Both the position numbers and the translations under genes were made by a program. A stretch of DNA of 64,000 nucleotides from an uncultured Acidobacteriota bacterium. Lineage in GTDB: Bacteria; Acidobacteriota; Thermoanaerobaculia; Gp7-AA8. Location: positions 715,618 through 779,617 of the forward strand of contig CAVWUH010000002.1 of NCBI GenBank assembly GCA_963758195.1, written 5' to 3'. Under the pieces are notes generated by a model. It saw only the letters and a program-made list of their open reading frames with translations. It made no database searches and was not told where the DNA came from. Positions 5,535 to 51,560 of the stretch are shown here, one piece after another. The number at the start of each line of letters is the position of its first letter. Within the stretch, counting starts at the first letter, position 1.

Positions 5535-5634
5535 GGACCGCCGGAGTCCTCGCCGTCTGGGTGAGCGGCGTCTCGCCGCTCACGGGCGGGCGTCGAGACG
5601 ACGCCGCCCCAGCCGCCGGGACGGCGGCGGTCCA
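5535..5634. repeat. Family-2 ~100-bp imperfect palindrome (GGACCGCCGGCGTCCTCGCCGGCTGGG...CCCAGCCGCCGAGACGGCGGCGGTCCA), copy a
   Basis: Near-identical to the copies at 30703-30802, 11997-12112 and 51440-51560. Lies between convergent genes. Confidence 0.85.
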
Positions 5635-5638
5635 CTCG

Positions 5639-6061
5639 TTACCCTTCCGGCACGTTGATCACGTACGCCCGCTGATGGATCTCGTCCGACGGATCAGGCA
5701 TGTAGATTCGCGTGAGATAGTCGAGCGCGATGGCCACTCCCTGCCGCTCGCGCATCGTGGCGATGAGAGGGACGAAGAGCGCGATGAAGAAGCCGGCGCC
5801 GCCGAACCAGTTCGTGGAGCGGAAGCCGAAGTAGAGCGCGACCACGCCGGCGAAGATCGGGACGCGGTCCATGATCAGAAGCCAGAACCAGAGATCGCCG
5901 TAGTTCGCCTGATAGAGCACGCCGCAAACCGAACAGCGCTCGTGCGCCTCGATCCAGCGCCGGAACAACGGCCCTTCCCCACAACGCGGGCAACGGCGGC
6001 GGAATCCGCGCCGGATCACGAGGGCGATCGGAATGCGCGGCCGTGCCGCTTCCGCGCTCAC
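5639..6061 (-). CDS. DUF983 membrane protein
   Basis: CPRCGEGPLF...CSVCG zinc-ribbon followed by two transmembrane helices. Its start overlaps the stop of the downstream gene by 4 nt. Confidence 0.7.
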   Translation of the reverse strand: MSAEAARPRIPIALVIRRGFRRRCPRCGEGPLFRRWIEAHERCSVCGVLYQANYGDLWFWLLIMDRVPIFAGVVALYFGFRSTNWFGGAGFFIALFVPLIATMRERQGVAIALDYLTRIYMPDPSDEIHQRAYVINVPEG

Positions 6062-6612
6062 TTCGCCTTGGCAGCGGACGAGCCGTCGATCGACTTCCGC
6101 AGCTCGCCCACGAATCGATCCGTCGCCCGGACGCTGCGCAGCACGACCGTCAGCGCCTCCTCCGGGAACCCCGATTCCAGCGTGACCGTGTAGCCGCAGA
6201 AAACATCATCTTCATCATCGGCGCCCCAATAGAGAAAGTTGAGATCGTTGTAGTGCGCGAGCTGGCGCAGGAAGGCGCGTTCGTCCTTGAGCTTGTTCAG
6301 ATTGATGTAGCCGCCCTTGTAGTGCGGAAACACGCGCAGGTTGATCGTCTCCGTCGGCGTCACGCGAAGCACGATCTCAAGCTTCTCGACGTTCGACAGC
6401 TTGTCTTTCATCGTGCCGGTAAAGTTGTACGGCTCCTTCGTGCTCTGATGAAACGAGACGTTGACATCGTCACGCTCCCCCACCGACTCCAGCAACCCCC
6501 GCAACTTCTCGCGCGTCGCGTCCCGCGCCTCCGAATCCGCATCCTGCGCACGCGCCGGAATCGCGAAGATCACGCAGAGAAGAACGAACAACATGGCGAG
6601 CCGCTGACGCAT
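6058..6612 (-). CDS. secreted YbjN-like hypothetical protein
   Basis: Signal peptide (MRQRLAMLFVLLCVIFAIPARA). The architecture weakly resembles a YbjN/sensory-transduction-regulator fold. Confidence 0.45.
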   Translation of the reverse strand: MRQRLAMLFVLLCVIFAIPARAQDADSEARDATREKLRGLLESVGERDDVNVSFHQSTKEPYNFTGTMKDKLSNVEKLEIVLRVTPTETINLRVFPHYKGGYINLNKLKDERAFLRQLAHYNDLNFLYWGADDEDDVFCGYTVTLESGFPEEALTVVLRSVRATDRFVGELRKSIDGSSAAKAK

Positions 6613-6658
6613 TCAGGGAGCCTCCTTGGCGGAGTCATCGTAAATCAGATCGCATACT

Positions 6659-6886
6659 GCGGTTGCTGGTTGCTGGTTGTCTGTGGAGCATCGCTCTCGC
6701 GACATCGCCGTGGACACGAGGAGGGCGGGCTTAATTAGCCCGCCGGTTCTGGGCGGGGGACGGAGGATGGACCAGGGACGGACGGCACGGGCGCGGGACG
6801 AGCCCCCGCCCAAAAGAATCGGCGGGCTATAAGCCCACCCTCCGGAATCTACGCGGGACCCACAGATAACCAGGAACCAGCAACAC
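6659..6886. repeat. Heptamer-repeat hairpin H2 whose loop contains the family-3 element
   Basis: Arms ggttgctggttgctggttgtctgtgg (6659-6686) and ccacagataaccaggaaccagcaacacc (6860-6886) are complementary. About 170 bp, including repeat 6718-6843, lies between them. Confidence 0.7.
6718..6843. repeat. Family-3 structured palindromic element, copy 2, nested inside heptamer hairpin H2
   Basis: Same arms as copy 1 with a longer central part. It lies between the two complementary arms of H2 (6659-6686 and 6860-6886). Confidence 0.8.
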
Positions 6887-6942
6887 CCCCCGCCGCAACT
6901 GTCCAGCTAACCGAACGAACCTTCGCTAGTCTAAGCACACGG

Positions 6943-9568: not shown

Positions 9569-9686
9569 GAGTTGGCGGTTGGCAGTTGGCGGTTGGCAGT
9601 GGAAGACCCACCGCGATGTCGCCAACCTGGGCCGCCAACCCGGTGTGCTCGCTCCCGCCAACCGCCAACCGCCAACTGCCAACTCC
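9569..9686. repeat. Heptamer-repeat hairpin H3 (gttggcg/gttggca units)
   Basis: gagttggcggttggcagttggcggttggcag ... ccgccaaccgccaaccgccaactgccaactcc, with a ~60-nt loop. Confidence 0.7.
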
Positions 9687-10502: not shown

Positions 10503-10560
10503 CTCCTCCGCGCCCTCCGCGCCTCCGCGTGAACCGTTTCTCACGCGGAGACGCGGAGAG
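10503..10560. repeat. Heptamer-repeat hairpin H4 (cctccgc units)
   Basis: ctcctccgcgccctccgcgcctccgcgtgaaccgtttctcacgcggagacgcggagag. The same unit type occurs in H16 and H17. Confidence 0.7.
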
Positions 10561-11996: not shown

Positions 11997-12112
11997 CGGC
12001 GGCGAGACGCCGCCGTTCCAGCCGCCGAGACGGCGGCGGTCCACACCGCGATTCTCGGACCGCTGGCGTCCTCGCCGGCTGGGCGAGCGGCGTCTCGCCG
12101 CTCGCGCGCGCG
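11997..12112. repeat. Family-2 element, copy b (halves in permuted order: B, spacer, A)
   Basis: The second half (ccagccgccgagacggcggcggtcca) precedes the first half (ggaccgctggcgtcctcgccggctgggcgagcggcgtctcgccgctcgcg). Lies just 3' of the histidine kinase gene. Confidence 0.8.
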
Positions 12113-12113
12113 C

Positions 12114-13358
12114 CTAGAACTCGATTGTGAAGTCCGCCCCGCCCTCCGCCCTGCTCTTGAGCGCGAACGCCAGGCCGTGATTGGCGAGGATGTCGTGGAC
12201 GATGGTGAGGCCGAGGCCGCGGCCGTCACGTTTGGTGGTGAAGAAGGGGGTGAAGAGTTCAGAACGGATCGCGTCGGCGATGCCGGGGCCGCTGTCGGCG
12301 ATGCTCAAGACGCCGTCGCGAAACGTGATGCGCAGAGCGCCGTCGCGACCGATGGCGTCGATGGCGTTGCGGACAATGTTGAGGATGACTTGCTCGATCT
12401 GGCTGGCGTCGACGTCGTATTCACGTCGATCCGCGAGATCGAGCTCGATGGCGATGCCGCGCTCCTGGAGCTCGGGGCGCATGAGGGCGGCGATGCGTTC
12501 GCAGAGATCGGCGATGCGCGCGGGGGAGCGTCGCGGCGCGGGGATGCGGACGACGTCGGCGAAGGCGCTCATGAAGCGATTCAGCGCGTCGATGCGCGCC
12601 GAGGCGATGGTCAACGCGCCGCGGAAGTCTTCGCGATCCGCTTCTCCGACCTGCGGGGCGTAGCGCAGCGACGATTCGAGCAGCGAGCGCACGGCGCCGA
12701 CGGAGTTGTTGACCTCGTGCGACATCATGCGAATCAGCTTCTCGTACGCCGACTTCTCGGAGACGCGCAGCTCCTCGGTCATCTCTTCGAGGAGATAGAA
12801 CGTCTTGGCGAAGCCGCGATCGCGGAACTCGGCGCGGCTGACTTTCATTCGCCGCGCGCCGAGGTGCGTGAGGAGGCGCGAGGCACCGGCGGGAATCGAC
12901 TCGAGTTGCTCGCGCAGCTCTGCGGTCATCATGCGCTCCGCCGCGGGGTTCATCTGTTCAATGCGGCCGTCGAAGTCGCAGATCACGATCCCCGCCGGCG
13001 AGGCGGCCACGATTTTCTGCAGCAACTGATGCTGTTCCTCGGCGGCGAGGCGTTCCTCGCGCAGCCGGTCGATCATGCGGTTGTAGACGTCGATGAGCGT
13101 GTCCATCTCCGTCTGCCCGACCGGCGCGAGGCGCGACGTGAAGTCGCGCTCGGCGATCAGCTCCGCACCGGTCTGGATGAGATCGAGCGGCACGAACAGC
13201 ACGCGCACCAGGCGAAAGCTGATGATCACCGACAGCACGAACAGCCCCTCGACGACGAACAGCAGCTCTGTCTGTTCGAGCAGAAACGCCAGCGACGCCC
13301 CCGCGAGGACCGCGTGCAGGGCGATGAAGTAGAGCAGGATTTTGCCGCGTAAGGTCAT
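12114..13358 (-). CDS. PAS-domain sensor histidine kinase (NtrY/ZraS-like)
   Basis: Two transmembrane helices, a HAMP/PAS region, an H-box (RMMSHEVNNSVGAV), and N/G1/G2 boxes (NIVRNAIDA, DSGPGI, GRGLGL). Confidence 0.85.
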   Translation of the reverse strand: MTLRGKILLYFIALHAVLAGASLAFLLEQTELLFVVEGLFVLSVIISFRLVRVLFVPLDLIQTGAELIAERDFTSRLAPVGQTEMDTLIDVYNRMIDRLREERLAAEEQHQLLQKIVAASPAGIVICDFDGRIEQMNPAAERMMTAELREQLESIPAGASRLLTHLGARRMKVSRAEFRDRGFAKTFYLLEEMTEELRVSEKSAYEKLIRMMSHEVNNSVGAVRSLLESSLRYAPQVGEADREDFRGALTIASARIDALNRFMSAFADVVRIPAPRRSPARIADLCERIAALMRPELQERGIAIELDLADRREYDVDASQIEQVILNIVRNAIDAIGRDGALRITFRDGVLSIADSGPGIADAIRSELFTPFFTTKRDGRGLGLTIVHDILANHGLAFALKSRAEGGADFTIEF

Positions 13359-13439
13359 GAGCGAGTCGCCGAGTCTACGAGTCGCCGAGTTGACAAGGGA
13401 GCCGCGGCTTCTCGCCGACTGGACGACTCGGCGACTCGA

Positions 13440-14814
13440 CTACTCCCCCAGTCCATACTTCTCCATCCTCCGATACAACGCCGCGCGCGAAATCCCCAGC
13501 GCCTCGGCGACGCGGGAGATGTTGCCTTCGTAGTGCTGCATGCACTTCACGATCATGCGCTTCTCCATCTCGTCGAGGGTGATCGTCCCAGCGTCGGGAA
13601 GAGCGACGTTGCGATGGTCGCCGCCGCCGGACGAGGCGTCGCGGACGGCGAAGAAATCGTCGACGTCGAGCTCGCGGCCGCCGCGGATCAGCACCGCGCG
13701 CTCGATGGTCTGGCGGAGCTGGCGGATGTTGCCCGGCCAGTTCTGCGACTTGAGCCATTCCATCGCCCGCGGCGAGATCGATTGCACGTCGGTGCGGTAG
13801 ACCTCGTTCGCGAGTCGCAGGAAATGATTCGCGAGTCGCGGCACATCGCCGCGGCGATCGCGCAGCGGTGGAAGATGGATGTTGATGAGGTTCAAGCGAT
13901 AGAGCAGGTCCTCGCGGAACTCGCCGCGCTGCACGAGCTCGTGCAGCGGACGATTCGTCGCCGCGATGACGCGCAGATCGACGGTGCGCGGGCGACTCGA
14001 GCCGAGCACTTCAAACGTCCGGTCCTGCAGCACGCGCAGCAGCTTCACCTGCGACGAGCCGTCGAGCTCGCCGATCTCATCGAGAAAAATCGATCCGCCG
14101 TCCGCGGTCTCGAATCGCCCGCGCCGCGTTTCGCGCGCGTCGGTGAACGCGCCGCGGACGTGGCCGAACATTTCGCTCTCGAACAGCGTCGACGAAATGC
14201 CGCCGAGGTTCACTTTCACGAACGGACCGCCGCGGCGCCGGCTGTTGCGATGCACGGCTTCGGCGATCAGCTCCTTGCCCGTGCCGCTCTCGCCGGTGAT
14301 CAGCACCGACGCTTCGGTCGGCGCGACGCGGCCGATCATCTCCAGGATGCGGATGCATCTTCGCGTCGCTGCCGATGATGTTCGAGAAGTCCCACTGCTC
14401 GTCGAGCTCCGCGCGCGTCGGATCTTTCTCCGCGACGCGCACGTCGGCGAGATTGAGCGCGGTCTCGACCGACTGCAGCACCGTCGCGTTGACCCACGGC
14501 TTGGTGATGAAGTCGGCCGCGCCGCGTTTCATCCCTTCGACGGCGAGCTGAATCGATCCCCACGCCGTCATCAGAATCACCGGCATCGCCGGTTCCTCGG
14601 CGTGAATGCGCTCGATGAGATCGAGCCCTTCCTCGCCGCCGGTCTGGCGGCTGAAGTTCATGTCCTGAATCACCAGCCGCGGCTTCGCGCGCCGCATCTC
14701 CGCCAGCGCCTCCATCGGCGTGTGCGCCGACACCGTCGCATAGCCGTGCTGCTTGAGCAGCAGCGCGAGCGATGCCGTGATGGAGGTGTCGTCGTCGACG
14801 ATCAGAATGGACAT
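13440..14814 (-). CDS. sigma-54-dependent Fis-family (NtrC-type) response regulator, carrying a single frameshift
   Basis: REC domain (ILIVDDD...LVIQDMNF). AAA+ sigma-54 activator domain (GESGTGKE, the GAFTGA-like motif GHVRGAFTDA, RVIAATN). C-terminal Fis helix-turn-helix. Deleting one extra C in 'gcatccgcatcc' near 14340 restores the frame (IIGSDAKMHRILEMIGRVAPT). Confidence 0.85.
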
Positions 14815-17350: not shown

Positions 17351-17458
17351 TAATCAGTATCACTGATCGCTGATCGCTGATCGCTTGCGAGCTCGCGAGG
17401 CACGCGACTGGTCCTGTGACGCACTGCGATACTGCAGATCAACCAGTCAACCAGTCAC
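17351..17458. repeat. Heptamer arrays H6 ((ctgatcg)3 and (caaccagt)2), within the operon between the ABC ATPase and permease genes
   Basis: cactgatcgctgatcgctgatcgc ... gcgatactgcagatcaaccagtcaaccagtcacc. The arms are only partly complementary. Confidence 0.55.
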
Positions 17459-18150: not shown

Positions 18151-18266
18151 AGATCGCAGATCGCAGATCGCAGATCGCGGATCGCAGGAGAAACAAACCA
18201 CGAAGGTCGCACGTGCAGTGGCAGCCTTCGGTCGTCGCTGCGTTCTGCGACCTGCGTTCTGCGATC
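18151..18266. repeat. Heptamer arrays H7 ((agatcgc)5 and (tgcgttc)2 plus gcgatct), within the operon between the MFP and ATPase genes
   Basis: agatcgcagatcgcagatcgcagatcgcggatcgc ... tgcgttctgcgacctgcgttctgcgatct. GATC recurs every 7 nt. Confidence 0.6.
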
Positions 18267-19508
18267 TCATTTCAGTCGTACCTTCTTCACCGCATCGAAC
18301 TCCGTCATGTCCGAGATCACCAGCTCGTCGCCTTCCTTCACGCCGTTCTCGATCTCGATGGCATCCTCGCTGCCGAGACCGAAGCGGATGGGGATGCGCA
18401 CCGCGTCGTCGCCGCGGATCACGAAGGCGTGATCGGTGCTCGTGCGTCCCAGCGCGCCGCGCCGCGCCATCAGCACATTCGCCCTGCGGCCGGTCACGAC
18501 GGCGACGTCGACGCGCAGGTTGTTGCGCAGCAGCGGATGCGACGGCTGATCGAGCGTGATGGAAAAACGCACGACGCCATCGACGATGCGCGGATCGACG
18601 CTGTCGATCACACCGCCGATGGTCGCGTTGTCGAGCTTCACCTGGGCGCGCATCCCCGCGGAAAGCCGCGCCGCATGGATGTCGGAGATCGAAGCATCGA
18701 CGCGATACGCCGACAGATCAGCGATGCGCGCCAGGATGTCGCCGCGGCGAATCGTCGCGCCGACCTCGCTGACGATCGACGTCAGCACGCCGTCGCGATC
18801 GGCGCGGAGCATGGCCAGCTCGAGCTGCCGCTTCGACTCATCGCGATCGCGGCGCGCCGTGCTGACGTCCGCCTGCGACGCAGCGAGCTGCATATCGCGC
18901 GAGCGCAACGCCCGCGTCAACGCTTCCTGCAGCTGGCGCAGCTCGATGTCGCTCTTCTTCGCCGCCGCGCCCGCGGCCAGCGCGTCCTGTTCGGCGATGA
19001 GTCCATCGGCGCGGAGCTTCGTCTTCTGCTCCGCCGTGTAATGCACGATCTGCGCGTCGAGCTTCTTCTGTTCGATCTGCGCCTTGAGATTCTCGATCGT
19101 CTCTTCGAGCCGCAGCCGCAGCTCCGCGCTCGTATTCTCGAGCTGCGTCACACGATCGTCGAGGCGAGCGGCATCGAGACGCGACGCCGAGGTATCGAGC
19201 GTCAGCAGCTCATCACCGATGCGCACGTGATCGCCGGCGCGGCGCCCGACGCGCAACACCCGCGCCTCGACCGGACTCGAAACGACCTGCTCGATGAGCG
19301 GCACCACCGAACCGTTGGCCTGCACCGTCGCCTCGACGGCCCCACGCTCGACGCGCGCCGTCTGAATCGCATCGCGCTGCATCGAAGGCCGCAGCCACTC
19401 GACCGTCGACGCCAGAAAAAACGCCGCCGCCGCCAGCGCGACAACAATCACGACCACGCGCCGCAAGACAACCCGCCGCCTGACTTCCGGAGTGATCTCG
19501 ACATCCAT
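18267..19508 (-). CDS. HlyD/MacA-family periplasmic adaptor (membrane fusion protein)
   Basis: N-terminal transmembrane anchor, long coiled-coil region (LENTSAELRLRLEETIENLKAQIEQKKLD...), and beta-barrel/lipoyl motifs. It is the first gene of the ABC efflux operon. Confidence 0.85.
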   Translation of the reverse strand: MDVEITPEVRRRVVLRRVVVIVVALAAAAFFLASTVEWLRPSMQRDAIQTARVERGAVEATVQANGSVVPLIEQVVSSPVEARVLRVGRRAGDHVRIGDELLTLDTSASRLDAARLDDRVTQLENTSAELRLRLEETIENLKAQIEQKKLDAQIVHYTAEQKTKLRADGLIAEQDALAAGAAAKKSDIELRQLQEALTRALRSRDMQLAASQADVSTARRDRDESKRQLELAMLRADRDGVLTSIVSEVGATIRRGDILARIADLSAYRVDASISDIHAARLSAGMRAQVKLDNATIGGVIDSVDPRIVDGVVRFSITLDQPSHPLLRNNLRVDVAVVTGRRANVLMARRGALGRTSTDHAFVIRGDDAVRIPIRFGLGSEDAIEIENGVKEGDELVISDMTEFDAVKKVRLK

Positions 19509-19627
19509 ACGCCGCTCGCCTATCGCGAAGGACGTACCAAGGTCGCGCGCAGTGTTTTCAACGAGTTAGCGCCAGCGAGTCGTTCGCAATCGCACGACGT
19601 GTCCGATAACGAACAGTGGAGGGCCGA

Positions 19628-19672
19628 CGGAGCGCAGGCATCCTGCCTGCCTGGAAGGCTGCGCTCCGTCAC
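19628..19672. repeat. short hairpin related to family 5 (GACGGAGCGCAGGC...GCTGCGCTCCGTC), terminator-like
   Basis: Perfect 13-bp stem lying 3' of the secreted-protein gene at 19669. Confidence 0.55.
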
Positions 19673-20283
19673 TCCCCGTAGTCGAGGATCATCAAGTACA
19701 CGTACGGATTCACGGCGCGCATCGCCGGATTGCCCGACGAGAACTCGTTGTCGCCGCCGAGGCGCTCTTCGTATTGCGATGGGCGCGCGGGATCGGGTTG
19801 CAGTCGCGCGCCGAAGGTGCACGGACCGCTGGCGTCCAGCGCTCCGCCCGACCAATCGGTGACCGTACCGGCGTAATCCCAATCAAAGCCGAGCAGACGG
19901 AACGTACCGCCGTTCATCCGCTCGAGCTGCAGCAGCGTCGTGCCGAGGGTGACGCCCTTCAACGTACGCCACTCGCTCCGATTCCAGTCCGCGGCATCGC
20001 CGACGCGCACGGTCGCGGGCCAACGACGAACCTTCGGCTTCTTCCAGAGGATCTCGATCCGCTTCGCCCGATCGTTCGGATAGACGATCGTCCCTGGCTC
20101 CGACTGCCCTTCGCCGACATACACGTCGCCGACGACGACATTGGCCGCGCCGAAATACGACGCCAGCGAGGCGTGACTCGCGCCCGGCGCGAGAGGACCG
20201 GTACACGCGAAACGCAACTGCGCCGCGGCGGCGGATGTGATCAAGGCGAGGGCGAGCGAGAAGATGGCAAGCGGGCGCGACAT
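19669..20283 (-). CDS. secreted hypothetical protein
   Basis: The start is set at MSRPLAIFSLALALITSAAAAQ, which is a signal peptide. The upstream part of the 465-aa ORF is antisense junk. No domain recognised. Confidence 0.45.
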   Translation of the reverse strand: MSRPLAIFSLALALITSAAAAQLRFACTGPLAPGASHASLASYFGAANVVVGDVYVGEGQSEPGTIVYPNDRAKRIEILWKKPKVRRWPATVRVGDAADWNRSEWRTLKGVTLGTTLLQLERMNGGTFRLLGFDWDYAGTVTDWSGGALDASGPCTFGARLQPDPARPSQYEERLGGDNEFSSGNPAMRAVNPYVYLMILDYGE

Positions 20284-20332
20284 GGGATGGGCATTGTAGT
20301 GTCGGCGCGACTTGCGCACGCTGCAATCTCCT

Positions 20333-20434
20333 GTCATCCCGAGCGTCGAGCGAGGGACCTGGGCGGGCGGGTGGCAGAAGGAGCGTGCCTCGTGCCGCTC
20401 GCCACCCAGGTCCCTCGCTACGCTCGGGATGACA
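20333..20434. repeat. Family-4 ~100-bp palindrome (TGTCATCCCGAGCGTCGAGCGAGGGACCTGGG...CCCAGGTCCCTCGCTNCGCTCGGGATGACA), copy 1
   Basis: Perfect long inverted arms with a variable centre. Three copies in the window. Confidence 0.85.
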
Positions 20435-21380
20435 TGCGTGTATTGATACGCCGAAGTTGCCGCGCGCTGAATCCCGCGCGTTGCGCGACGGCCTCCATCG
20501 TCAGTCCAGGATCGTGCATCAGCGTGCGCGCCAGCTCCGCGCGGACGCGCGTCGAGAACTGGTGCACGGAGATCCCCGTCGCCGCGCGGAACGTTCGCGT
20601 GAGGCTGCGCGCGCTCATGCCCGCGAGCTCCGCGAGCTCGTCGAGCGTGGAACGCGAACGGGGGTTCTGCACGATGAAATCCTGCACGCGATGCACGCCC
20701 GGATGAATGTGCGTGCGGTAATCGAGATACACGCTGCTCTGTTTCTGCGCGCCATCCCGCCGCAGGTACACCACCATCTCCCGCGCCACCTCGGCGGCGA
20801 CGATCGGCCCGTCGGCCTGCTCGATGAACGCCAGCGCCATGTCGATGCCCGAGGCAATGCCCGCGCTCGTCGTGAGCTCGCCGTCGCTGACATAGAGACG
20901 ATCCTCGAGCACCTTCGCCCGCGGAAACCTCCGCGCCAGCTCCGCCGTGCGCGACCAATGCGTCGTACAACGCCGCCCATCGAGCAGTCCCGCTTCGCCG
21001 ACGATGAATGCACCGGTACAAACCGACGCGATGTGCGCGCCCGCCCGCGCCGCATCCGCCAACCACCGCGTGATCGCCCGATCGACCTTCTGCGTCGCCG
21101 CGTACGGCATGCCCGGCACGATCACGATGGGACCAGTTTGCTGTTCGCAGTTCGCAGTTCGCAGGAGAACCCCCGCCCCAGGAGCCGGCGACGCCGTGTC
21201 GTTCCTGCCAGCTGCGAGCTGCGAGCCGCGAGCTATTTCCGGCAGCCGGTCGAGATCGGCCAGCACGATCCCCTGATGCGAGTGCACGCGATCGCGGTTC
21301 GAGCAGACGCGGATCCGGTAGCGGCCTTTCGCTTCCGAGAAGGCCTGCAACGGCCCGGCGAGGTCGAGGATCTCGACCTC
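20418..21380 (-). CDS. GlxA-family transcriptional regulator (DJ-1/PfpI domain plus AraC helix-turn-helix) carrying an in-frame ~99-nt repeat insertion
   Basis: DJ-1/PfpI motifs (ILDLAGPLQAF, IASVCTGAFIVGEAGLLDGRRCTTHW) and a C-terminal AraC helix-turn-helix (LDELAELAGMSARSLTRTFRAATGISVHQF). Hairpin H8 (21141-21233) is translated in frame as RGSQLAAGRNDTASPAPGAGVLLRTANCEQQTG. The start codon is uncertain and probably non-ATG. Confidence 0.7.
   Translation of the reverse strand, partial: EVEILDLAGPLQAFSEAKGRYRIRVCSNRDRVHSHQGIVLADLDRLPEIARGSQLAAGRNDTASPAPGAGVLLRTANCEQQTGPIVIVPGMPYAATQKVDRAITRWLADAARAGAHIASVCTGAFIVGEAGLLDGRRCTTHWSRTAELARRFPRAKVLEDRLYVSDGELTTSAGIASGIDMALAFIEQADGPIVAAEVAREMVVYLRRDGAQKQSSVYLDYRTHIHPGVHRVQDFIVQNPRSRSTLDELAELAGMSARSLTRTFRAATGISVHQFSTRVRAELARTLMHDPGLTMEAVAQRAGFSARQLRRINTRMSSRA
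21141..21233. repeat. Heptamer-repeat hairpin H8 ((gttcgca)3 ... (ctgcgag)3) inserted in frame in the GlxA-family CDS
   Basis: ctgttcgcagttcgcagttcgcagg ... ccagctgcgagctgcgagccgcgagc. It interrupts the DJ-1 domain between two conserved blocks. Confidence 0.7.
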
Positions 21381-30607: not shown

Positions 30608-30609
30608 TC

Positions 30610-30642: not shown

Positions 30643-30702
30643 TGATCGATCGCTGGTCAGTGTTTGTGAACGGCACACCTCCATGTAGCGAGGGGCACCT
30701 AT

Positions 30703-30802
30703 GGACCGCCGGCGTCCTCGCCGGCTGGGCGAGCGGCGTCCCGCCGCTCGCGGGCGGGCGTCGAGACGACGCCGCCCCAGCCGCCGAGACGGCGGCGGTC
30801 CA
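30703..30802. repeat. Family-2 element, copy c
   Basis: About 95% identical to copy a. A single (ggttgtc)n heptamer array lies 60 nt upstream at 30610-30642. Confidence 0.85.
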
Positions 30803-34146: not shown

Positions 34147-34153
34147 TTTTGTT

Positions 34154-34260
34154 GGAGCGCAGGCTTCCAGCCTGCCGGTCCGCCGGCATCTTGCCGGCAG
34201 TCCTCGCGAGTGCGTACCGGCTGGAAGCCGGTGGACCGGCAGGCTGGAAGCCTGCGCTCC
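34154..34260. repeat. Family-5 palindrome (GGAGCGCAGGCTTCCAGCCTGCCGGTCCGCCGGC...GCCGGCTGGAAGCCGGTGGACCGGCAGGCTGGAAGCCTGCGCTCC)
   Basis: Full inverted-repeat copy 3' of the PydA-like gene. A half copy lies at 63054-63097 and a short related hairpin at 19628-19672. Confidence 0.8.
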
Positions 34261-34267
34261 GACGGAA

Positions 34268-39651: not shown

Positions 39652-40536
39652 TGCCGATCCGCAAGATCGCCATCCTCCTGCACGAGCGCCATCGCGATGC
39701 GCTGTTGACCGCTTATCGCATCTGGGGACTCGCCGCACACTGGCGCAAGCGCGGCATCACCGTCGAGCCAATCTTGGGCATCGAGCGCGAGATCGACGCC
39801 GATCTGCTGATTCCGCATCTCGATCTCTCGTACATCCCCGACGATTACTGGGCGTTCCTGCAACGACATCCGAACGTCGTCAATCGCCGCGTGCGCGACA
39901 TCCGCAAGATCGCGATCAGCACGAATCTCGTGCAGCTCACCGATTCCTGGCAGGGACCCGTGATCGTGAAGACGAACCTCAACTATCGCGGCGTGATGGA
40001 CGCGCAACTCCTCGGCCCAACACGAACGTTCGCAAAGCGCATCGCCAATCGCATCACGGATCGCCTCGCCCGCCCCTCCTTCATCGAACGGAGATTCCTC
40101 GGCTGGCGCAGCACGCCGCATCGCTATCACATCTTTCGCAGCAAGCACGACGTTCCCCGCCCCGTCTGGACAAACGACGCGCTCGTCGTCGAACGCTTTC
40201 TCCCCGAGCGCCGCGGCAGGCAGTACGTGATGCGCATCTGGGCCTTCTTCGGCGATCGCGGCCAGAGCAAGGTGTTCTACGGCGACGATCCCTGGATCAA
40301 AGGGCAGAACTCCGAGATGCACGTCCTCGCCGATCCCCCTCCGCCCGCCATCGTCGAAGCCCGCCACCGCCTCGGTCTCGACTACGCCAAGATGGACTAC
40401 GTCCTTCACGACGGCGAGGCGGTGCTGATCGACGTCAACGTCACGCAAGGCCTGCGATTGCCGACCGAGCCGTCGATGCTCGAGCGATCGCGGCACATGG
40501 CGGACGGGTTGGCGTACTTCGAACGATCGCGGATCG
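39651..40536 (+). CDS. ATP-grasp-like hypothetical protein; no stop codon before the next gene
   Basis: Starts one nt inside the symporter stop (ctgATGc). Beta-rich motifs (GPVIVKTNLNYRG, YVMRIWAFFGDRG, EAVLIDVNVTQG) resemble an ATP-grasp fold. The reading frame continues through hairpin 40524-40624 into the downstream gene with no stop. Confidence 0.4.
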
Positions 40537-40624
40537 CAGATCGTGGATCGCAAAAGACGCCCCCATCACCGCGCGATGAAGAACATTTGCGCACCTGCGA
40601 TCCGCGATCTACGGTCCGCGATCT
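40524..40624. repeat. Heptamer-repeat hairpin H10 ((gatcgca) units), translated in frame between the ATP-grasp and beta-ureidopropionase genes
   Basis: gatcgcggatcgcagatcgtggatcgca ... tgcgatccgcgatctacggtccgcgatct. No stop codon occurs within or before it. Confidence 0.65.
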
Positions 40625-40671
40625 GAGGGTGGTAAGCTCTCCCGCACTTCAAAATCAGGAGCCAAAATTCA

Positions 40672-41543: not shown

Positions 41544-41550
41544 AACGGCA

Positions 41551-41635
41551 GTTGCTGGTTGCTTGTTGCTGGTTGTCGAGGGGCGTCACGCTTCGATGAA
41601 CCACAACAGCAACCAGCAACCAGGAACCAGCAACC
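41551..41635. repeat. Heptamer-repeat hairpin H11 (ttgctgg units)
   Basis: gttgctggttgcttgttgctggttgt ... acaacagcaaccagcaaccaggaaccagcaacc. Lies between the beta-ureidopropionase stop and the DinB-family start. Confidence 0.7.
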
Positions 41636-42190: not shown

Positions 42191-43069
42191 ATGCGCACGC
42201 TCACGCGCGACGACTTCGACGCGCTGCACCTCGCGTTCGTCGAAGCCTTCAGCGACTACGTCGTCAAGCTCGCGCCAACGCGCGAGCAACTCGCGGAGAT
42301 GCTGACGCGCCGCGGCTACGTTCCCGAAGCCTCGGTGGCCGAGGTCGAAGGCGACCGCATCGTTGCCTTCACGCTGAACGGAATCGACGGCACGAGCGCC
42401 TACGACACCGGCACCGGCGTCGTCCCTTCCCATCGCCGCCGCGGTCTCGCCAACGCGATGCTGGCGTTCCTCGAGCCGCTGCTGCGCGAGCGCGGCTGTA
42501 CGGAGTACATCCTCGAAGTGCTCGAAGCCAACGCCGCCGCTCGCGCGCTCTACCTCGGCGCGGGGTTTCAGGAGACGCGCGGGTTGCAGTGCTGGACGTT
42601 CGAGGCTCAAGGGCGCACAGGCTCACAGGCTCACAGCGTTTTTGCCCCGGTGAGCCTCGAAGCCCGTGAGCCTGTGAGCCACTGGTGGAGCGTCACTCCC
42701 TCCTGGCAAAACTCCTCGCCCTCGATCGCCCGCGCCCGCGTTCCGCACGTCACGCTCGGCGACGAGAACTGCTACGCGATCCTCTTCCCATCGAACGGCG
42801 ATCTCGCGCAACTCGCGGTGCGTCCCGAGATGCGCCGGCAGGGAATCGGAACGCGACTCCTTCACGAAGTCGCGACACTCGCCGGCAAACCGCTGCGCAT
42901 CATGAACGTCGACGAGCGCGACGAAGGGATTGCTCGTTTTCTCGATGCCGCCGGCGCGAAGCGGATGGTGCGGCAGATCGAGATGCGTTTTCAGCTCGCA
43001 GCTGGCAGCTCGCAGCTCGCAGCGGAAACCACATCGACTCCCGGTCGACTTCTGCCAGCTGAGAGCTGA
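42191..43069 (+). CDS. tandem-GNAT N-acetyltransferase with in-frame repeat insertions
   Basis: Two acetyl-CoA-binding motifs (HRRRGLANAML; RRQGIGTRLLHEV). Hairpin H12 is translated in the inter-domain linker (GRTGSQAHSVFAPVSLEAREPVSHWW). The C-terminal tail (QLAAGSSQLAAETTSTPGRLLPAES) is a translation of hairpin H13. Confidence 0.65.
   Translation: MRTLTRDDFDALHLAFVEAFSDYVVKLAPTREQLAEMLTRRGYVPEASVAEVEGDRIVAFTLNGIDGTSAYDTGTGVVPSHRRRGLANAMLAFLEPLLRERGCTEYILEVLEANAAARALYLGAGFQETRGLQCWTFEAQGRTGSQAHSVFAPVSLEAREPVSHWWSVTPSWQNSSPSIARARVPHVTLGDENCYAILFPSNGDLAQLAVRPEMRRQGIGTRLLHEVATLAGKPLRIMNVDERDEGIARFLDAAGAKRMVRQIEMRFQLAAGSSQLAAETTSTPGRLLPAES
42616..42680. repeat. Heptamer-repeat hairpin H12 ((caggctcac)2 ... 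(gtgagcct)2) in frame inside the GNAT CDS linker
   Basis: cacaggctcacaggctcacagcgtttttgccccggtgagcctcgaagcccgtgagcctgtgagcc. Confidence 0.65.
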
Positions 43070-43082
43070 GAGCTGAGAGCTA
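42992..43082. repeat. Heptamer-repeat hairpin H13 ((cagctcg)n ... (gagctga)3) forming the GNAT C-terminal tail and stop codon
   Basis: cagctcgcagctggcagctcgcagctcgcagc ... tgccagctgagagctgagagctgagagctaag. Confidence 0.65.
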
Positions 43083-43086
43083 AGCC

Positions 43087-43728
43087 ATGGAAATCAAAAT
43101 CTGCTGCATCAGCAGCCACGATGAAGCGCGCATGGCCATCGACGCCGGCGCGAACATTCTCGGACTCGTTTCGGCGATGCCGAGCGGGCCGGGCGTCATC
43201 GACGAAACGCTCATCGCATCGATCGCCGCCGCTGTCGATGCACAGACCTTTCTGCTCACCTCGCTGCGCGATGCCGATGCAATCGTCGCGCAGCATCGGC
43301 GTTGCGGGACGACCGGCATTCAGATCTGCGACGCCCTTCCGCCCGGAAACTTCCGCGCGTTGCGCGAAGCGTTGCCGGGCGTGCGACTCGTCCAGGTCAT
43401 CCACGTCGTCGGCGAGCAGTCGTACGACGAAGCGATGAACGCGGCGAAGGAGGCCGACGCGTTGCTGCTCGATTCGGGCAATCCCGCGCTGCAGATCAAA
43501 GAGCTCGGCGGCACGGGACGCGTCCACGATTGGACGATCAGCAGACGCATCTGCGCGGACGCCGGAGTGCCGGTCTTTCTTGCCGGAGGTCTCCGTCCGG
43601 AAAACGTTGCCGACGCGCTCGCCATGACCGGCGCGAGCGGTGTCGACATCTGCAGCGGCGTGCGCACCGACGACCGACTCGATCGCGCAAAACTCGATCG
43701 TTTCATCTCTGCGGTTACTGGTTTCTAG
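43087..43728 (+). CDS. trpF: N-(5'-phosphoribosyl)anthranilate isomerase
   Basis: MEIKICCISSHDEARMAIDAGANILGLV, a (beta/alpha)8 fold and C-terminal VFLAGGLRPENV match TrpF. Confidence 0.8.
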   Translation: MEIKICCISSHDEARMAIDAGANILGLVSAMPSGPGVIDETLIASIAAAVDAQTFLLTSLRDADAIVAQHRRCGTTGIQICDALPPGNFRALREALPGVRLVQVIHVVGEQSYDEAMNAAKEADALLLDSGNPALQIKELGGTGRVHDWTISRRICADAGVPVFLAGGLRPENVADALAMTGASGVDICSGVRTDDRLDRAKLDRFISAVTGF

Positions 43729-43798
43729 TTGCTGGTTGTCTGCGGTGACTCGATGTTCAGGAGAGATCCACAGATAACCAGCAACCAGGAACCAGGAA
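43714..43798. repeat. Heptamer-repeat hairpin H14 (ttgctgg type) 3' of trpF
   Basis: gttactggtttctagttgctggttgtctgcggtg ... cacagataaccagcaaccaggaaccaggaacg. Confidence 0.7.
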
Positions 43799-43877
43799 CG
43801 AATCGCAGCCTTGGGCAACCCACGCTGCCGGCCGTGCCGGCCGGCTGGCGGGTTTCCTGCTAGTCGAGTAGACGGTC

Positions 43878-44276: not shown

Positions 44277-44280
44277 AAAA

Positions 44281-44515
44281 GATCGCGGATCGCAGTTCGC
44301 AGATCGCGGGAAAACCACGGCAAACTCCCTGTCATCCCGAGCGTCGAGCGAGGGACCTGGGGGCCGGGTGGCAGAAGGCTCGTGCCTCGCGCCACCCCGC
44401 CCAGGTCCCTCGCTCGACGCTCGGGATGACATGTTTGGGGTTCTCTCCTGCGATCCGCGATCTGCGATCTGCGATCTCGTTGCAATCTGCGATCTCGCAC
44501 GAGCGATCTACAATC
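44281..44515. repeat. Heptamer-repeat hairpin H15 ((gatcgcN) and (gcgatct) arms) carrying family-4 copy 2 in its loop
   Basis: Left gatcgcggatcgcagttcgcagatcgcgg. Right ctgcgatccgcgatctgcgatctgcgatctcgttgcaatctgcgatctcgcacgagcgatct. Confidence 0.7.
44330..44431. repeat. Family-4 palindrome, copy 2, nested between the arms of heptamer hairpin H15
   Basis: Flanked by a (gatcgcN)4 array on the left (44281-44309) and a complementary (gcgatct)n array on the right (44449-44515). Confidence 0.85.
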
Positions 44516-44521: not shown

Positions 44522-47391
44522 ATGCGTCGATTGCTCTCCATCCTTCTCATCCTCGCCGCGAGCGCGCTGAGCATCTCCGCCCAGCCCTACGACCCTTCCC
44601 TCTTCGCCGAAATGCGTTGGCGGATGATCGGGCCGTTTCGCGGCGGGCGCACCGTCGCCGCGGCGGGCGATTCCGGCGCAGCCGAACGTCTTCTACATCG
44701 GCGTCAACAACGGCGGCGTCTGGAAGACCGACCGACTACGGCCGCACGTGGACGCCGATCTTCGACGACCAGCCGACCGGCTCGATCGGCGCGATCGCCG
44801 TCGCGCCGTCCGATCCGAACATCATCTACGTCGGCAGCGGCGAAGGGCTTGCAGCGCCCCGACCTCTCGATCGGCGACGGCATCTACAAGTCGACCGACG
44901 CCGGCAAGACGTGGACGCACCTCGGCCTGCGCGACGGCCAGCAGATCCCGCAGATCGTCGTCGATCCGCACGATCCCGAACCGCCTCTTCGTCGCCGTGC
45001 TCGGCCATCCCTACGGCCCGAACGCGGAGCGCGGCATCTTCCGCTCGACCGACGGCGGCAAGACGTTCGCAGAAGGTGCTCTACAAGGACGAGAACACCG
45101 GCGGCATCGACGTCGCCTTCGATCCGTCGAACCCGCAGACCGTCTACGCCGCGCTGTGGGAGGCGCGGCAGGGGCCGTGGGAGAACGGCGCGTTCTCGCG
45201 GGCCGGGCAGCGGCCTGTTCAAGTCGACCGACGGCGGCACGACGTGGAAGCAGCTGACGAACGGACTGCCCGACGTCGAGCGACGGCCTCGGCCGCATCG
45301 GCATCGACGATCTGCGCCGAGCGATCCGAAGCGGCTGTACGCGATCGTCGACGCGCACGAAGCGGGCGGGCTCTATCGCTCCGACGACGCCGGCGAGAGC
45401 TGGACGCGCGTCAACGACGGACGAGCGCATCTGCGGCCGCGGCGGCGACTTCGCCGAGGTCAGCGTCGATCCGAAGAACCCCGACGTCGTCTACGTCGCC
45501 AACACGTCGACCTGGAAGTCGACCGACGGCGGCAAGACGTTCACCGCGTTCCGCGGCGCGCCCGGCGGCGACGACTATCACCGCATCTGGATCAATCCCG
45601 AACGACCCGAACATCATCCTGCTCGCCGGCGACCAGGGCGCGGTCATCACCGTCAACGGCGGCGCAGACCTGGAGCTCCTGGTACAACCAGCCGACCGCG
45701 CAGTTCTACCACGTCAACACCGACAACGCGTTTCCGTACCGGGTCTGCGGCGGACAGCAGGAGAGCGGCTCGGCGTGCGTGCCAGCCGCGGCGACGACGG
45801 CGCAGATCACGTTCCGCGACTGGCATCCGGTCGGCGTCGAGGAGTACGGCTACGTCGCGCCCGATCCGCTCGATCCCGACATCATCTACGGCGGCAAGGT
45901 GACGCGCTACGACCGCCGCACCGGCCAGGTGCAAGACGTCACGCCCGAAGCCGCTGCGCGGCGCCGGCTATCGCGTCGTGCGCACGCGCCGGTCGTCTTC
46001 TCGCCGGTCGATCCGCACGTGCTCTTCTTCGCCTCGAACACGCTGTGGAAGACGACGAACGGCGGCAGCAGCTGGACGGAGATCAGCCCCGACCTGACGC
46101 GCAAGACGTGGGCGATGCCGGCGAGCGTCGGCATCTACACGAACACGCCCGCGGCGAAGCCGACGCAGCGCGGCGTCATCTACGCGGTCGCGCCGTCGCC
46201 GCTCGACGTCAACCGCATCTGGGCCGGCACCGACGACGGCCTGATTCACGTCACGACCGACGGCGGCAAGAACTGGAAGGACGTCACGCCGCCGCAGCTC
46301 GACGCCGTGGGCAAGGTCTCGATCCTCGACGCCTCGCACTTCGACGCGCAGCACCGCCTACGCCGCGGTCAACACGTTCCGGCTCGACGACCTGCGCCCG
46401 CACATCTATCCGCACGCACGACGGCGGCAAGACGTGGACGGAGATCGTCAGCGGCATCCCCGACGGCGCGATCGATCAACGTCGTCCGCGAAGATCCGAA
46501 GCAGAAGGGCCTGCTCTTCGCCGGCACCGAGCGCAGGTCTACGTCTCGTTCGACGACGGCGACCACTGGCAGTCGCTGCGGCTCAACATGCCGGCGACGT
46601 CGATCCGCGATCTCGTGATGCACGAACGACGACCTCGTCGTCGGCACGCACGGCCGCGGCTTCTGGATCCTCGACGACATCGACGCCGCTGCGCCAGAGT
46701 CGCCGACGCCGACAGCCGACGCGTTCCTCTTCAAGCCCGCAACGCGCGCTGCGCGTCCGCTGGAACACGAACACCGACACGCCGCTGCCGCCCGACGAGC
46801 CCGCGGGCCAGAATCCGCCCGACGGCGCGATCATCGACTACTACCTGGCGTCGCCGTCGGCGACCGGCGACGCTCGAGATCCTCGACGCATCCGGCGCGC
46901 TCGTGCGCCGCTACTCGAGCAGCGACGTCGTCGCGCCAGTCGCCGATCAGGAGAACGTGCCCTGGTACTGGATCCGTCCACAACGCGCGCTCCCCGCCAC
47001 CGCCGGCATGCACCGCTTCACCTGGGATCTCCGCTATCCGCCCCTGCCGGAGAAAGCCCCCAGCTTCTCCATCGCCGCAACCCCCGGCGACACCGCTCCC
47101 GATTCGATCGCACCCTGGGCCATGCCCGGCACGTACACGATCAAGCTCACCGCCAACGGCCACACATTCACGCAGCCGCTGATCGTTACCATGGACCCTC
47201 GCGTGAAAACCTCCCGCGAAGATCTGGCGCAACAGTTCTCCCTCTCGATCCGCCTCTACCAGGCACTGAAAGCCGAAACCGAAGGCTCCGACCGCGCCAC
47301 GAAACTGCGCCGCCTCCTCGACACCCTCCAAAGCGCCGACGTCGCGCCGACTGCTCAGTTGGTCACGGCGGTGGAGGATGCGTTGAAGTAG
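44522..47391 (+). pseudogene. BNR/sortilin (VPS10)-repeat glycosyl-hydrolase-like secreted protein, with many frameshifts
   Basis: Signal peptide MRRLLSILLILAASALSISA. Repeated SxDxGxTW BNR motifs (STDAGKTWTH, STDGGKTF, STDGGTTWKQ, TTNGGSSWTE, TTDGGKNWKD, DDGDHWQS) are spread over all three plus-strand frames from 44.5 to 47.4 kb. Confidence 0.75.
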
Positions 47392-47447
47392 TTCTCCGCA
47401 TCTCCGCGTCTCCGCGTGAAATCCATCTCACGCGGAGACGCGGAGGA
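47392..47447. repeat. Heptamer-repeat hairpin H16 (ctccgcg units)
   Basis: ttctccgcatctccgcgtctccgcgtgaaatccatctcacgcggagacgcggagg. Lies between the BNR hydrolase and GH57 genes. Confidence 0.7.
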
Positions 47448-49885: not shown

Positions 49886-49901
49886 CTACAATCGAGCGCG
49901 A

Positions 49902-51426
49902 ATGCACACCTCCGTCTCCCCCGCCCACGATGCCCGACGAGTGGCCGGCGTGCTTCTCCATCCGACGTCTCTGCCTCGGCGCTACGGCATCGGCGAGCTC
50001 GGCGATCACGCCGTCGAGTTCCTCGACTGGGCCGCGAGCGCTGGCATGCGGATCTGGCAGGTCCTGCCGCTGAATCCTCCCGGCTACGGCGCCTCGCCGT
50101 ACGGATGCCTCTCGTCCTTCGCCGGCAATCCGCTGCTCATCTCCTGCAGCGCTTGCTGCAGGAGGGACTGCTCGACGCCGAGCGACGTCGCCGACGTGCC
50201 GCGATTCTCGGATCAGCACGTCGAGCTCGATCGCGTTCAGACGTTCAAGTTCGCGCTGCTTCGCAAATCGTGGCAACGCTTCGAAGAGCGCGCGCCGGAC
50301 TCGCTGCGGGCGCAGCTCGACGCGTTCGTCCATGCACCCGAACAGCGCGAATGGCTCGACGACTACACGCTCTACATGGCGCTCAAGGACCACACCGGCG
50401 GCCAGCCCTGGTGGCGCTGGAACAGCGGGCTCATGAAGCGCACCCCGCGCGCGATGGAGCGCGCGCGCGTTCGCCACATCGACGCGATCCGCTTCTGGGA
50501 GTTCGCGCAGTTCCTGTTCTTCCGGCAGTGGGCGTGCGATTCGCGAAGCCGCGCACGCGCGCGGCATTCGCATCATGGGCGACGTGCCGATCTACGTCGC
50601 CGGCGACAGCGCCGACGTCTGGGCCAATCGCGAGCTCTTTCAGCTCGACGAGCATGGACAGCCGACCGTCGTCGCCGGCGTTCCGCCCGACTACTTCAGC
50701 GCAACCGGCCAGCGCTGGGGCAATCCGCTCTATCGCTGGGACCTCATGCGCGAGACGCAGTACCGCTGGTGGGTCGCCCGCGTGCGCACCAACCTGCGCT
50801 TCGCCGACATCGTGCGCCTCGATCACTTCCGCGGATTCGCCGCGTACTGGGAAATCCCCGCGAGCGAAGACGACCGCGGTGCGCGGACGCTGGATGCCCG
50901 GCCCCGGCCTCGCGCTCTTCGAAACGCTGCAACGCGAGCTCGGTCAACTTCCGCTCATCGCCGAAGACCTCGGCTTCATCACCGAGGATGTTCACGAACT
51001 GCGCAGAGCGATCGGGACTGCCGGGCATGCAGCATCCTGCAGTTCGGATTCGGACAGGACGACAGCCCGCACCTTCCGCATCGCTTCGAGCCGCACACGG
51101 TCGTCTACACCGGCACGCACGACAACGACACCGCGCGCGGCTGGTTCGAAGCCGCCAGCACCGAAGAGCGCGACAACGCGCGCGCCTACCTCGGCTGCTC
51201 GCACGCGGAAGAGATTGCAACGGCCTTGATCCGCGCGGCCTACACATCCGTCGCGGAAGCGGCCATCGTCCCCGTCCAGGACATCCTCGGCCTCGCCAGC
51301 GACGCCCGCATGAACACCCCCGGCGAAGAACAACACAACTGGACCTGGCGCCTCGCTCCCGGCATCCTGCGCAACGAGCACGCGGTGAGTTTGCGCAAGC
51401 TCGCGGCAATCACGGGCCGCGTGTAA
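49902..51426 (+). pseudogene. malQ: 4-alpha-glucanotransferase (amylomaltase, GH77), with multiple frameshifts
   Basis: N-terminus GVLLHPTSLPRRYGIGELGD...WQVLPLNPPGYGASPYGCLSSFAGNPLLIS. DVPIYVAGDSADVW, DHFRGF and YTGTHDNDT motifs lie in shifted frames. Confidence 0.8.
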
Positions 51427-51439
51427 CGCACGCGCCGGC

Positions 51440-51560
51440 AGCGAGACGCTGCCGGCCCAGCCGGCGAGACGCCGGCGGTCCAACGGCGTCGCTTGTGGAC
51501 CGCTGCCGTCTCGGCGGCTGGCGTGGCGGCGTCCCGCGCCGCCACTCGGGCGGGTGGGCG
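51440..51560. repeat. Family-2 element, copy d (permuted, like copy b)
   Basis: Half-B, spacer, half-A arrangement. Lies between malQ and the ydjM-like gene. Confidence 0.75.

Follow-up and report, generated by a model that had tools for sequence, protein, structure and literature searches.

Introduction

Repetitive extragenic palindromic (REP) sequences, bacterial interspersed mosaic elements (BIMEs) and REP doublets forming hairpins (REPINs) are believed to be processed by Y1 (HUH) transposases in the form of single-stranded hairpins. Work on REP-type repeats has centred on Proteobacteria, and little has been done in Acidobacteriota, one of the dominant soil phyla. Here, we describe four families of palindromic repeats, referred to as families 2–5, in a 64,000-nucleotide stretch of the genome of an uncultured soil bacterium of the Thermoanaerobaculia (Acidobacteriota, GTDB lineage Gp7-AA8; assembly GCA_963758195.1, contig CAVWUH010000002.1, positions 715,618–779,617), hereafter the window.

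Di Nocera et al. (2013, PMC3733652) describe dimers that are head-to-head (HH) or tail-to-tail (TT) among the standard REP arrangements. The same study reports REP dimers inside larger palindromes and Acidobacterial TIRYTs (Y1 transposases associated with terminal inverted repeats), and speculates that dimers and arrays perhaps arise from alternative processing of circles carrying REP units. In Acidobacteria, atypical hairpins that have a CnGA foot flank class 3 Y1 genes, and Solibacter usitatus carries ∼600 of these hairpins (Quentin et al. 2018, PMC6006769).

Families 2–5 are newly found members of the known REP/BIME/REPIN kind, with a putative Y1 transposase as the mobilising enzyme. As in REP and BIME elements (PMC3733652), the hairpin units are short, rich in GC and tagged on one side by unpaired bases, and they occur as singles, HH and TT inverted dimers, alternating clusters and dimers of unlike partners. 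Their extragenic location, mostly at gene 3′ ends, the placement of some dimers in larger palindromes and the spurious open reading frames (ORFs) running across them are further likenesses. They differ in their tags, which are GGWCC/GGAGC (families 2 and 5) or (T)GTCA (family 4) instead of GTAG/CGTC, in the two hairpins and ∼45 nt of the family 2 and 5 units, and in their Thermoanaerobaculia host. With the REPIN–RAYT system (RAYT, REP-associated tyrosine transposase; Bertels and Rainey 2011, PMC3116915) they share the inverted doublet that forms one long hairpin as the commonest form, and many copies inherited within a lineage; here, however, neither the window nor 1.07 Mb of loci yielded a cognate RAYT, and the same sites are taken by one or another of several coexisting, unrelated families. 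The repeats of class 3 TnpA(Y1) transposases and TIRYTs (Quentin et al. 2018; Di Nocera et al. 2013) are alike in their Acidobacterial host and in being atypical, high-copy hairpins, whereas no class 3 gene was seen beside a unit in the window or the loci covered here. Intrinsic (Rho-independent) terminators are also stable GC hairpins placed right after stop codons, and family 3 has a hairpin followed by GATTCTTTTG; families 2, 4 and 5, in contrast, are without a T/U tract, and the elements are multi-copy, conserved in primary sequence and present in promoter-side spacers as well. Taken as a whole, we judge it likely that families 2–5 are non-autonomous palindromic repeats of this genome that spread as single-stranded DNA hairpins by way of a putative HUH Y1 transposase.

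Identification of the repeat families

The repeat copies were recovered by self-BLAST of the window together with pattern searches against dinucleotide shuffles. Every copy located by a first-pass annotation, made by a model from the sequence alone, was found again within a base or two (Table 1), and families 2–5 far exceed chance in the pattern searches. Each copy is a long imperfect palindrome in a spacer or at a gene end, and palindrome, fold and gene-context analyses agree with the initial description of structured repeats in intergenic regions or at gene ends. The fold z scores against dinucleotide shuffles range from −5.4 to −13.7, with none of 200 shuffles equalling the element, except for the half copy of family 5, which is marginal. 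The recurrent spurious peptides mentioned in the annotation are also present (PERRARDLG four times and GGRRDDAAPAA twice). At the gathering threshold, Rfam gave no match in the window or in nine viral loci, and in E-value mode it gave only sub-threshold matches of miRNA precursors to long hairpins. A literature search by sequence string returned nothing relevant.

Family 2 is built from one oriented unit

All eight halves of the four family 2 copies in the window (copies a–d) are versions of one oriented unit of ∼45 nt, comprising hairpin 1, a short linker ending in CAG, hairpin 2 and a GGTCC tag. Hairpin 1 has a stem of 7–11 bp with variable sequence and a loop of RGA or CGGGA, while hairpin 2 is constant, GCCGSCG-(R)GGA/AGA-CGSCGGC. 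The 64-kb window holds eight of these units (0 expected), and exact unit matches number five against 0.00 expected from dinucleotide shuffles.

Copies a and c are tags-outside (GGACC...GGTCC) HH inverted dimers, and copies b and d are tags-inside (...GGTCC, ∼14 nt, GGACC...) TT inverted dimers. Copy a occupies a 109-nt spacer separating two convergent stop codons. Copy b, with a 14-nt spacer from GGTCC to GGACC, ends 2 nt before the stop codon of a histidine kinase gene (12114–13358, minus strand), and copy d sits between the end of the GH77 gene and the start of the YdjM gene. The minimum-free-energy folds of the four copies have z scores of −5.4 to −7.2, and the inverted doublet can form one long hairpin; in the HH dimers the two hairpin-2 regions pair as the outer stem and the hairpin-1 stems fold locally. 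The earlier description of conserved arms around a variable centre holds for families 3–5 and fails for family 2, in which the outer hairpin and tag are constant and the inner hairpin varies through compensated changes.

We scanned 185,579 species genomes with a pattern of hairpin 2 plus the tag, leaving hairpin 1 unconstrained, and at least 111 stretches were listed. Units were counted with a profile search of the window and of the loci among the matches listed (individual loci are given L numbers). The unit is present in at least eight Thermoanaerobaculia/Acidobacteriota metagenome-assembled genomes (MAGs). Among the matches listed, many come from Thermoanaerobaculia and unclassified Acidobacteriota MAGs, with ∼25 blocks from one MAG, and GC-rich genomes of other phyla give single chance matches. 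The window and the loci among the matches listed hold at least 109 units. Among these matches we count 25 HH dimers, ∼31 singles, one <><> cluster and one ><> cluster; the only free TT dimers are the two in the window. In L108, an alternating eight-unit array (<><><><>, period 157) contains both junction types together. At least 13 contig ends fall within ∼130 nt of a family 2 unit, which points to a high copy number and to a repeat that breaks short-read assemblies. In L081 (3366–3669), ∼300 nt of other tandem repeats (∼20-nt GTGGTCTTCGCGACTCATCGC-like units) lie between the halves of an HH dimer.

The swapped order of the half-sites in copies b and d, reported by the first-pass annotation, is real and is explained by HH and TT inverted dimers of one unit. 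It had been linked to a circular or concatemeric transposition intermediate opened at different points. Y1 transposons do use circular single-stranded intermediates, and alternative processing of REP-carrying circles has been the subject of speculation (Di Nocera et al., PMC3733652). A circularly permuted HH dimer would, however, retain the same spacers, and the inner spacers of HH dimers (10–20 nt between variable hairpins) differ in sequence from the TT spacers (∼14 nt between tags). TT dimers are also inherited and duplicated as entities of their own, flanks included, and alternating arrays account for both junction types, so that no circular intermediate is needed and we consider one very unlikely. 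The other possibility raised at the time, tandem partial copies, comes closer, with both junctions coexisting in the L108 array.

The stems of family 2 covary. Hairpin 1 shows at least 15 different stems, all perfectly complementary, for example GTGGCGGCG/CGCCGCCAC, GCGCAGGCG/CGCCTGCGC, GTGCGGGCG/CGCCCGCAC and GAGCACGCG/CGCGTGCTC, and hairpin 2 occurs in two compensated versions (at least 62 and at least 17 cases). RNAalifold, run on a plain MAFFT alignment, found both hairpins, with compensatory changes at 6 of the 12 pairs. Base pairing is kept by compensatory changes, as a structural constraint would predict; this indicates constraint on pairing and does not distinguish RNA from single-stranded DNA.

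Structure of families 5, 4 and 3

Family 5 follows the same hairpin grammar as family 2, with GC stems of 5–7 bp, TCC/TCT (GGA/AGA) loops, and GGAGC and GGWCC tags. Its full copy reads GGAGCGC, hairpin AGGCT-TCC-AGCCT, GGTCC, hairpin GCCGGCA-TCT-TGCCGGC and a centre, followed by the mirror image. The short relative ends 1 nt before the stop codon of the gene at 19669–20319 (minus strand). Mixed clusters of family 5 and family 2 units are present in the relatives L003, L079 and L029.

The arms of family 4 are inverted copies of a short unit, GTCATCCCGAGCG-(T)AGC-GAGGGACC, with the consensus GTCAT-YCY-GA-GCGNAGC-GA-RGR-AYC. A comparison of nine full elements (from the window, from related contigs and from a single metagenome contig) shows nearly invariant outer arms, with variation confined to the inner G-rich part and the centre, the latter differing between copies in length and sequence. 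Family 3 consists of two inverted arms (GGCGGGCT-loop-AGCCCGCC GATTCTTTTG), both having a GC-rich hairpin and then a T-tract and both resembling terminators in their score, whichever strand is read; on inspection, families 2, 4 and 5 lack a T/U tract. Related, metagenomic and viral loci amounting to 1.64 Mb contained no third copy of family 3, and IMG/VR gave none either.

Families 3, 4 and 5 carry long inverted arms at their termini and measure 90–130 nt, as would classical MITEs, that is, internally deleted insertion sequences with terminal inverted repeats that are moved by a DDE transposase. The arms, however, are units that are also found alone, as tandem copies and inverted in both orders, and the differing length and sequence of the centres fit poorly with descent from a single deletion. 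Eleven copies or fragments of family 4, compared together with their flanks, show no target-site duplication, and across 1.64 Mb of loci no pair of arms surrounds a gene of transposase size. With no target-site duplication in these flanks and no parent element in these loci, we rejected a DDE-type MITE origin, which is highly improbable.

Further copies in related genomes had been expected, and these exist for families 2, 4 and 5. Both of the outcomes named in advance as refuting the first-pass reading, a lack of further copies and a lack of covariation, thus failed to occur for these three families.

Turnover at orthologous spacers

Synteny among the first 111 loci did not provide orthologous spacers that could be used, and these were taken from protein-anchored contigs. 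L113 is a contig of a close relative (93% protein and ∼87% DNA identity) that is syntenic with the window from 24 to 45 kb. The spacer between the FkbO and dihydroorotate dehydrogenase (DHODH) genes holds family 5 in the window, family 4 in L113, L114 and the more distant L116, and is 3 nt long in L117. The aldehyde dehydrogenase spacer carries a family 2 HH dimer in both the window (copy c) and L113; the outer hairpins align and are conserved, the inner part has diverged, and L113 has an additional family 4 half. The spacer between the response regulator and the sortilin-like gene contains family 4 within a heptamer palindrome in the window (copy 2) and in L113 (392–501). Here the outer arms are kept and the centre has diverged, with the neighbouring genes 84% identical. 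In the PRAI/acetyltransferase spacer, L113 has an extra unit and the window has none.

A second relative, L248 (77% protein identity), has a TT dimer in the GH77/YdjM spacer that shares 88.6% identity with copy d. L248 carries this TT dimer again, almost identical and with its flanks, 1.4 kb away, at a place where the spacer in the window measures 11 nt. Together, these comparisons show that the elements have been gained, lost and exchanged between relatives, and that TT dimers have been propagated as entities. Some copies are more constant than the adjacent genes, through selection, homogenisation or reinsertion.

Genomic context and possible host function

Gene context was assigned with a simple codon-bias gene caller. 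Family 2 clusters in the window and in the loci among the matches listed occupy 19 convergent, 18 tandem and 5 divergent spacers. All gene pairs in the same DNA number 54 convergent, 227 tandem and 64 divergent, so that convergent spacers are enriched about threefold. Most of the clusters lie within 20 nt of a stop codon, with a bias to gene 3′ ends. Some of the elements are nested: family 3 copy 2 and family 4 copy 2 occupy the centres of palindromes with tandem-heptamer arms, and a family 2 TT dimer in L248 is likewise placed in the centre of a heptamer-armed palindrome.

This distribution raises the question of whether the elements are host-selected RNA or transcription modules, i.e. bidirectional terminators or hairpins that stabilise mRNA at its 3′ end, kept in place by selection in a lineage where canonical U-tract terminators are few, and not mobile DNA. 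The strong enrichment in convergent spacers and directly after stop codons is what such modules would display. So are the very stable folds on both strands, the compensatory changes in the stems, an orthologous TT dimer more conserved than its flanking genes, and the resemblance of the family 3 arms to intrinsic terminators with T-tracts. Host modules would not be expected, though, to hold different families in one orthologous spacer in different relatives, or to occupy divergent spacers on the promoter side, as 5 of 42 family 2 clusters and copy 2 of family 3 do. Nor would they be expected to form arrays of eight units and mixed-family clusters, to break contigs, or to be duplicated almost identically with their flanks 1.4 kb apart as in L248, and families 2, 4 and 5 are without a U-tract. 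A terminator role and mobility can, in addition, coexist. We therefore regard a purely host-selected origin as unlikely. A terminator or mRNA-stabiliser role is putative for these sequences, as is the small-RNA role raised by the first-pass annotation, and is compatible with their 3′-end enrichment; acting as terminators or stabilisers would leave the exchange of families between sites unexplained.

Candidate mobilising enzyme and the case for REP-type repeats

The case for REP-type mobile repeats is built on the features shared with REP, BIME and REPIN elements: tagged and strand-asymmetric units, HH, TT and array arrangements, compensated stems, 3′-end bias, nesting in hairpin centres and flanks free of target-site duplications. 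In the mechanism we propose, the elements would spread as single-stranded DNA hairpins, which would be cut and rejoined by a tyrosine (Y1) transposase with an HUH motif, belonging to the RAYT, TIRYT or class 3 type, and they would persist where insertion does no harm. Transcribed elements would probably serve as putative 3′-end hairpins (terminators or mRNA stabilisers) as a side effect and not as their reason for existing. No Y1 gene was found next to a unit in the window or the loci covered, and the enzymatic step is therefore inferred.

Several observations weigh against this interpretation. A tblastn search with E. coli RayT and a scan for the HUH...Y motif, which recovered E. coli rayT as a positive control, detected no Y1 transposase ORF in the window or in 1.07 Mb of loci. 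The sole RAYT in 617 kb of metagenome loci (L166, 2588–3208) is bracketed by GTAG REPs of its own (GTAGGGGCGGATC...). The tags of families 2–5 are neither GTAG nor CGTC, being GGTCC/GGACC or GGAGC/GCTCC (families 2 and 5), TGTCA (family 4) and AGGAG (family 3), and the family 2 unit, at ∼45 nt with two hairpins, exceeds the length of a classic REP. Family 3 comprises two copies only, both in the window. No empty site with conserved flanks, of the kind that would define the insertion boundaries, was found. The coding DNA that flanks the GH77/YdjM TT dimer in L248 is 75–83% identical to the window, and the conservation of copy d together with the invariant family 4 arms could equally mean a host function. 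On the side of method, the family 2 scan pattern fixed most of hairpin 2, and the gene calls are crude.

In L166, family 4-like units lie ∼700 nt from the RAYT gene and are not its flanking repeats.

If families 2–5 are REP-type repeats, the absence of GTAG and CGTC tags widens the known range of REP architectures, and the units are concrete candidate substrates for the unexplored Y1 transposases of Acidobacteria. The families break short-read assemblies, yield spurious ORFs such as PERRARDLG and can mislead the annotation and synteny of soil MAGs, which makes a catalogue of the units directly useful.

The widespread family 4 unit

The most interesting loose end is the family 4 unit, which is very widespread and covaries almost perfectly. 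Metagenomes were scanned with the pattern GTCATYCYGAGCG-N(3-30)-GARGRAYC, which does not force complementarity, and this gave 147 matches in 120 stretches, on contigs of 32–70% GC. The YCY and RGR triplets are complementary in 143 of the 147 matches, with four stem types (CCC-GGG, 37; CCT-AGG, 48; TCC-GGA, 30; TCT-AGA, 28). CAGC, AAGC, TAGC and GAGC are the commonest inserts, and the core GCG-N-AGC has N as C in 36, A in 35, T in 11 and G in 5 metagenome cases. From these common NAGC inserts, we read the unit as a 5-bp stem, tandem G.A/A.G pairs, a GC/GC step and a GNA triloop. We take the core to be the d(GCGNAGC) DNA mini-hairpin with a GNA triloop described by Hirao and co-workers. That mini-hairpin is a biophysical motif, unlike a repeat family, and the core of the unit has exactly its sequence; the mini-hairpin may matter for the unit at the level of single-stranded DNA. 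Near-perfect covariation and wide distribution make the unit a clean test case of whether hairpins are selected as DNA or as RNA.

A T is present on each side of the unit in 70–80% of the metagenome cases, where the units are arranged as singles, HH dimers (∼10), tandem copies (∼5) and one TT dimer. A plasmid search with the unit gave chance matches only. In IMG/VR viral contigs, the unit is found as same-orientation singles, with 2–5 per contig (Table 1), often just upstream of a ribosome-binding site, and in some viral units a long extra hairpin replaces the NAGC loop. The singles in L120, L123, L124, L125 and L127 are all antisense to the flanking genes (15 of 15), yet the bias in metagenome loci is weak (12 antisense and 6 sense), and the strand bias of singles was not used as an argument.

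The unit has CYGA directly 5′ of GCGNAGC, which fits the CnGA foot of class 3 hairpins in all 147 matches, although this part is fixed by the pattern. The family 4 terminus GGGATGAC matches the terminal inverted repeat motif GGGGWSAS at 7 of 8 positions. Compared by description, the resemblance to class 3/TIRYT elements may serve as a lead and is not a match. A speculative idea, to which we give a low probability, is that the GTCAT...AYC unit and the GGWCC two-hairpin units could be recognition sites of one uncharacterised single-stranded DNA transposition system. This system would act through a class 3/TIRYT-like Y1 or another enzyme, prefer the loops of palindromes and be common to several phyla and phages; alternatively, the GTCAT...AYC unit might be a structured nucleic-acid motif that is new and very widespread and has its own function.

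Other features of the window

Table 1. Positions of palindromic elements in the window and of single family 4 units in viral contigs.
Feature	Position	Strand	Description
Family 2, copy a	5535–5634		HH dimer; units 5535–5579 (−), 5591–5633 (+)
Family 2, copy b	11997–12112		TT dimer; units 11999–12042 (+), 12057–12101 (−)
Family 2, copy c	30703–30802		HH dimer; units 30703–30746 (−), 30759–30801 (+); convergent spacer
Family 2, copy d	51433–51552		TT dimer; units 51439–51481 (+), 51497–51537 (−)
Family 3, copy 1	3107–3196		Two inverted modules: AGGAG, GGCGGGCT-loop-AGCCCGCC, GATTCTTTTGGG; T-tracts inward
Family 3, copy 2	6719–6843		Arms of copy 1, longer centre; divergent spacer, inside palindrome 6662–6686 / 6860–6884
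Family 4, copy 1	20332–20434		Inverted GTCATCCCGAGCG...GAGGGACC units, G-rich inner arms, variable centre
Family 4, copy 2	44330–44431		Perfect 32-nt arms; centre of heptamer palindrome 44280–44321 / 44448–44487
Family 4, copy 3	60980–61095		Ends 2 nt before stop codon of gene 61098–61664 (−)
Family 5, full copy	34143–34271		Fills spacer between DHODH and FkbO stop codons
Family 5, half copy	63050–63097	+	One two-hairpin unit, GCGCTCC at end
Family 5, short relative	19620–19667		∼63% identity to reference half
Family 4 unit singles, viral L123	876, 1883, 3513, 6516, 10921		
Family 4 unit singles, viral L127	8016, 8961, 10243, 12595		Also in L120, L124, L125
Outer palindrome	6662–6884		Arms of tandem GTTGCTG heptamers; encloses family 3 copy 2
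Outer palindrome	44280–44487		Arms of tandem GATCGCR heptamers; encloses family 4 copy 2; kept in L113
Heptamer palindromes	9569–9685, 13362–13445, 18151–18277, 21135–21244, 40524–40634, 41549–41635, 42992–43084, 43712–43801, 6661–6884, 44280–44487		
Heptamer half arrays	1406–1446, 17359–17385, 30609–30644, 63144–63176		
CTCCGCG(T)/CTTCGCG palindromes	10515–10558, 47402–47445, 59208–59251, 28999–29060		

Palindromes with arms of 3–5 tandem heptamers (GTTGCTG, GATCGCA, GTTGGCR and others) form a large intergenic class in the window. The repeat unit is private to each locus and the partner arm is its reverse complement; at 13362–13445 an 8-nt unit (GAGTCGCC) takes the place of the heptamer. Such palindromes are also present in the relatives L113 and L248 and beside family 4-like units in IMG/VR contigs, and they recall the STRR (short tandemly repeated repetitive) heptamer repeats of cyanobacteria. 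A further palindrome family, exemplified by CTCCGCGTCTCCGCGTGAA...TCACGCGGAGACGCGGAG, repeats CTCCGCG(T) or CTTCGCG in tandem and probably belongs with the heptamer palindromes.

The window has a G+C content of ∼64% and a gene content typical of Acidobacteriota, including MacB/FtsX transporters, HlyD and a BNR/sortilin-like protein, and the nearest named homologues of its proteins are from Thermoanaerobaculia MAGs. Several genes are apparently truncated or frameshifted. The ORFs at 30341–30607, 33676–34146 and 50575–51426 match the profiles of aldehyde dehydrogenase, DHODH and 4-alpha-glucanotransferase, respectively, at their C-terminal parts only, and the corresponding genes are full-length in relatives, which suggests that these partial ORFs are frameshifts arising from long-read indel errors or pseudogenes.

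Within the BNR/sortilin-like coding region (∼44523–47391), the direct-repeat families D1, D2, D6 and D18 are coding Asp-box/BNR repeats. ARAGORN predicted a 96-nt tRNA-Thr in the same region (46303–46398, minus strand), which is probably a false positive. A 102-nt direct repeat with 72% identity (60152–60253 and 62101–62202, 1.9 kb between the copies) is probably paralogous coding sequence.

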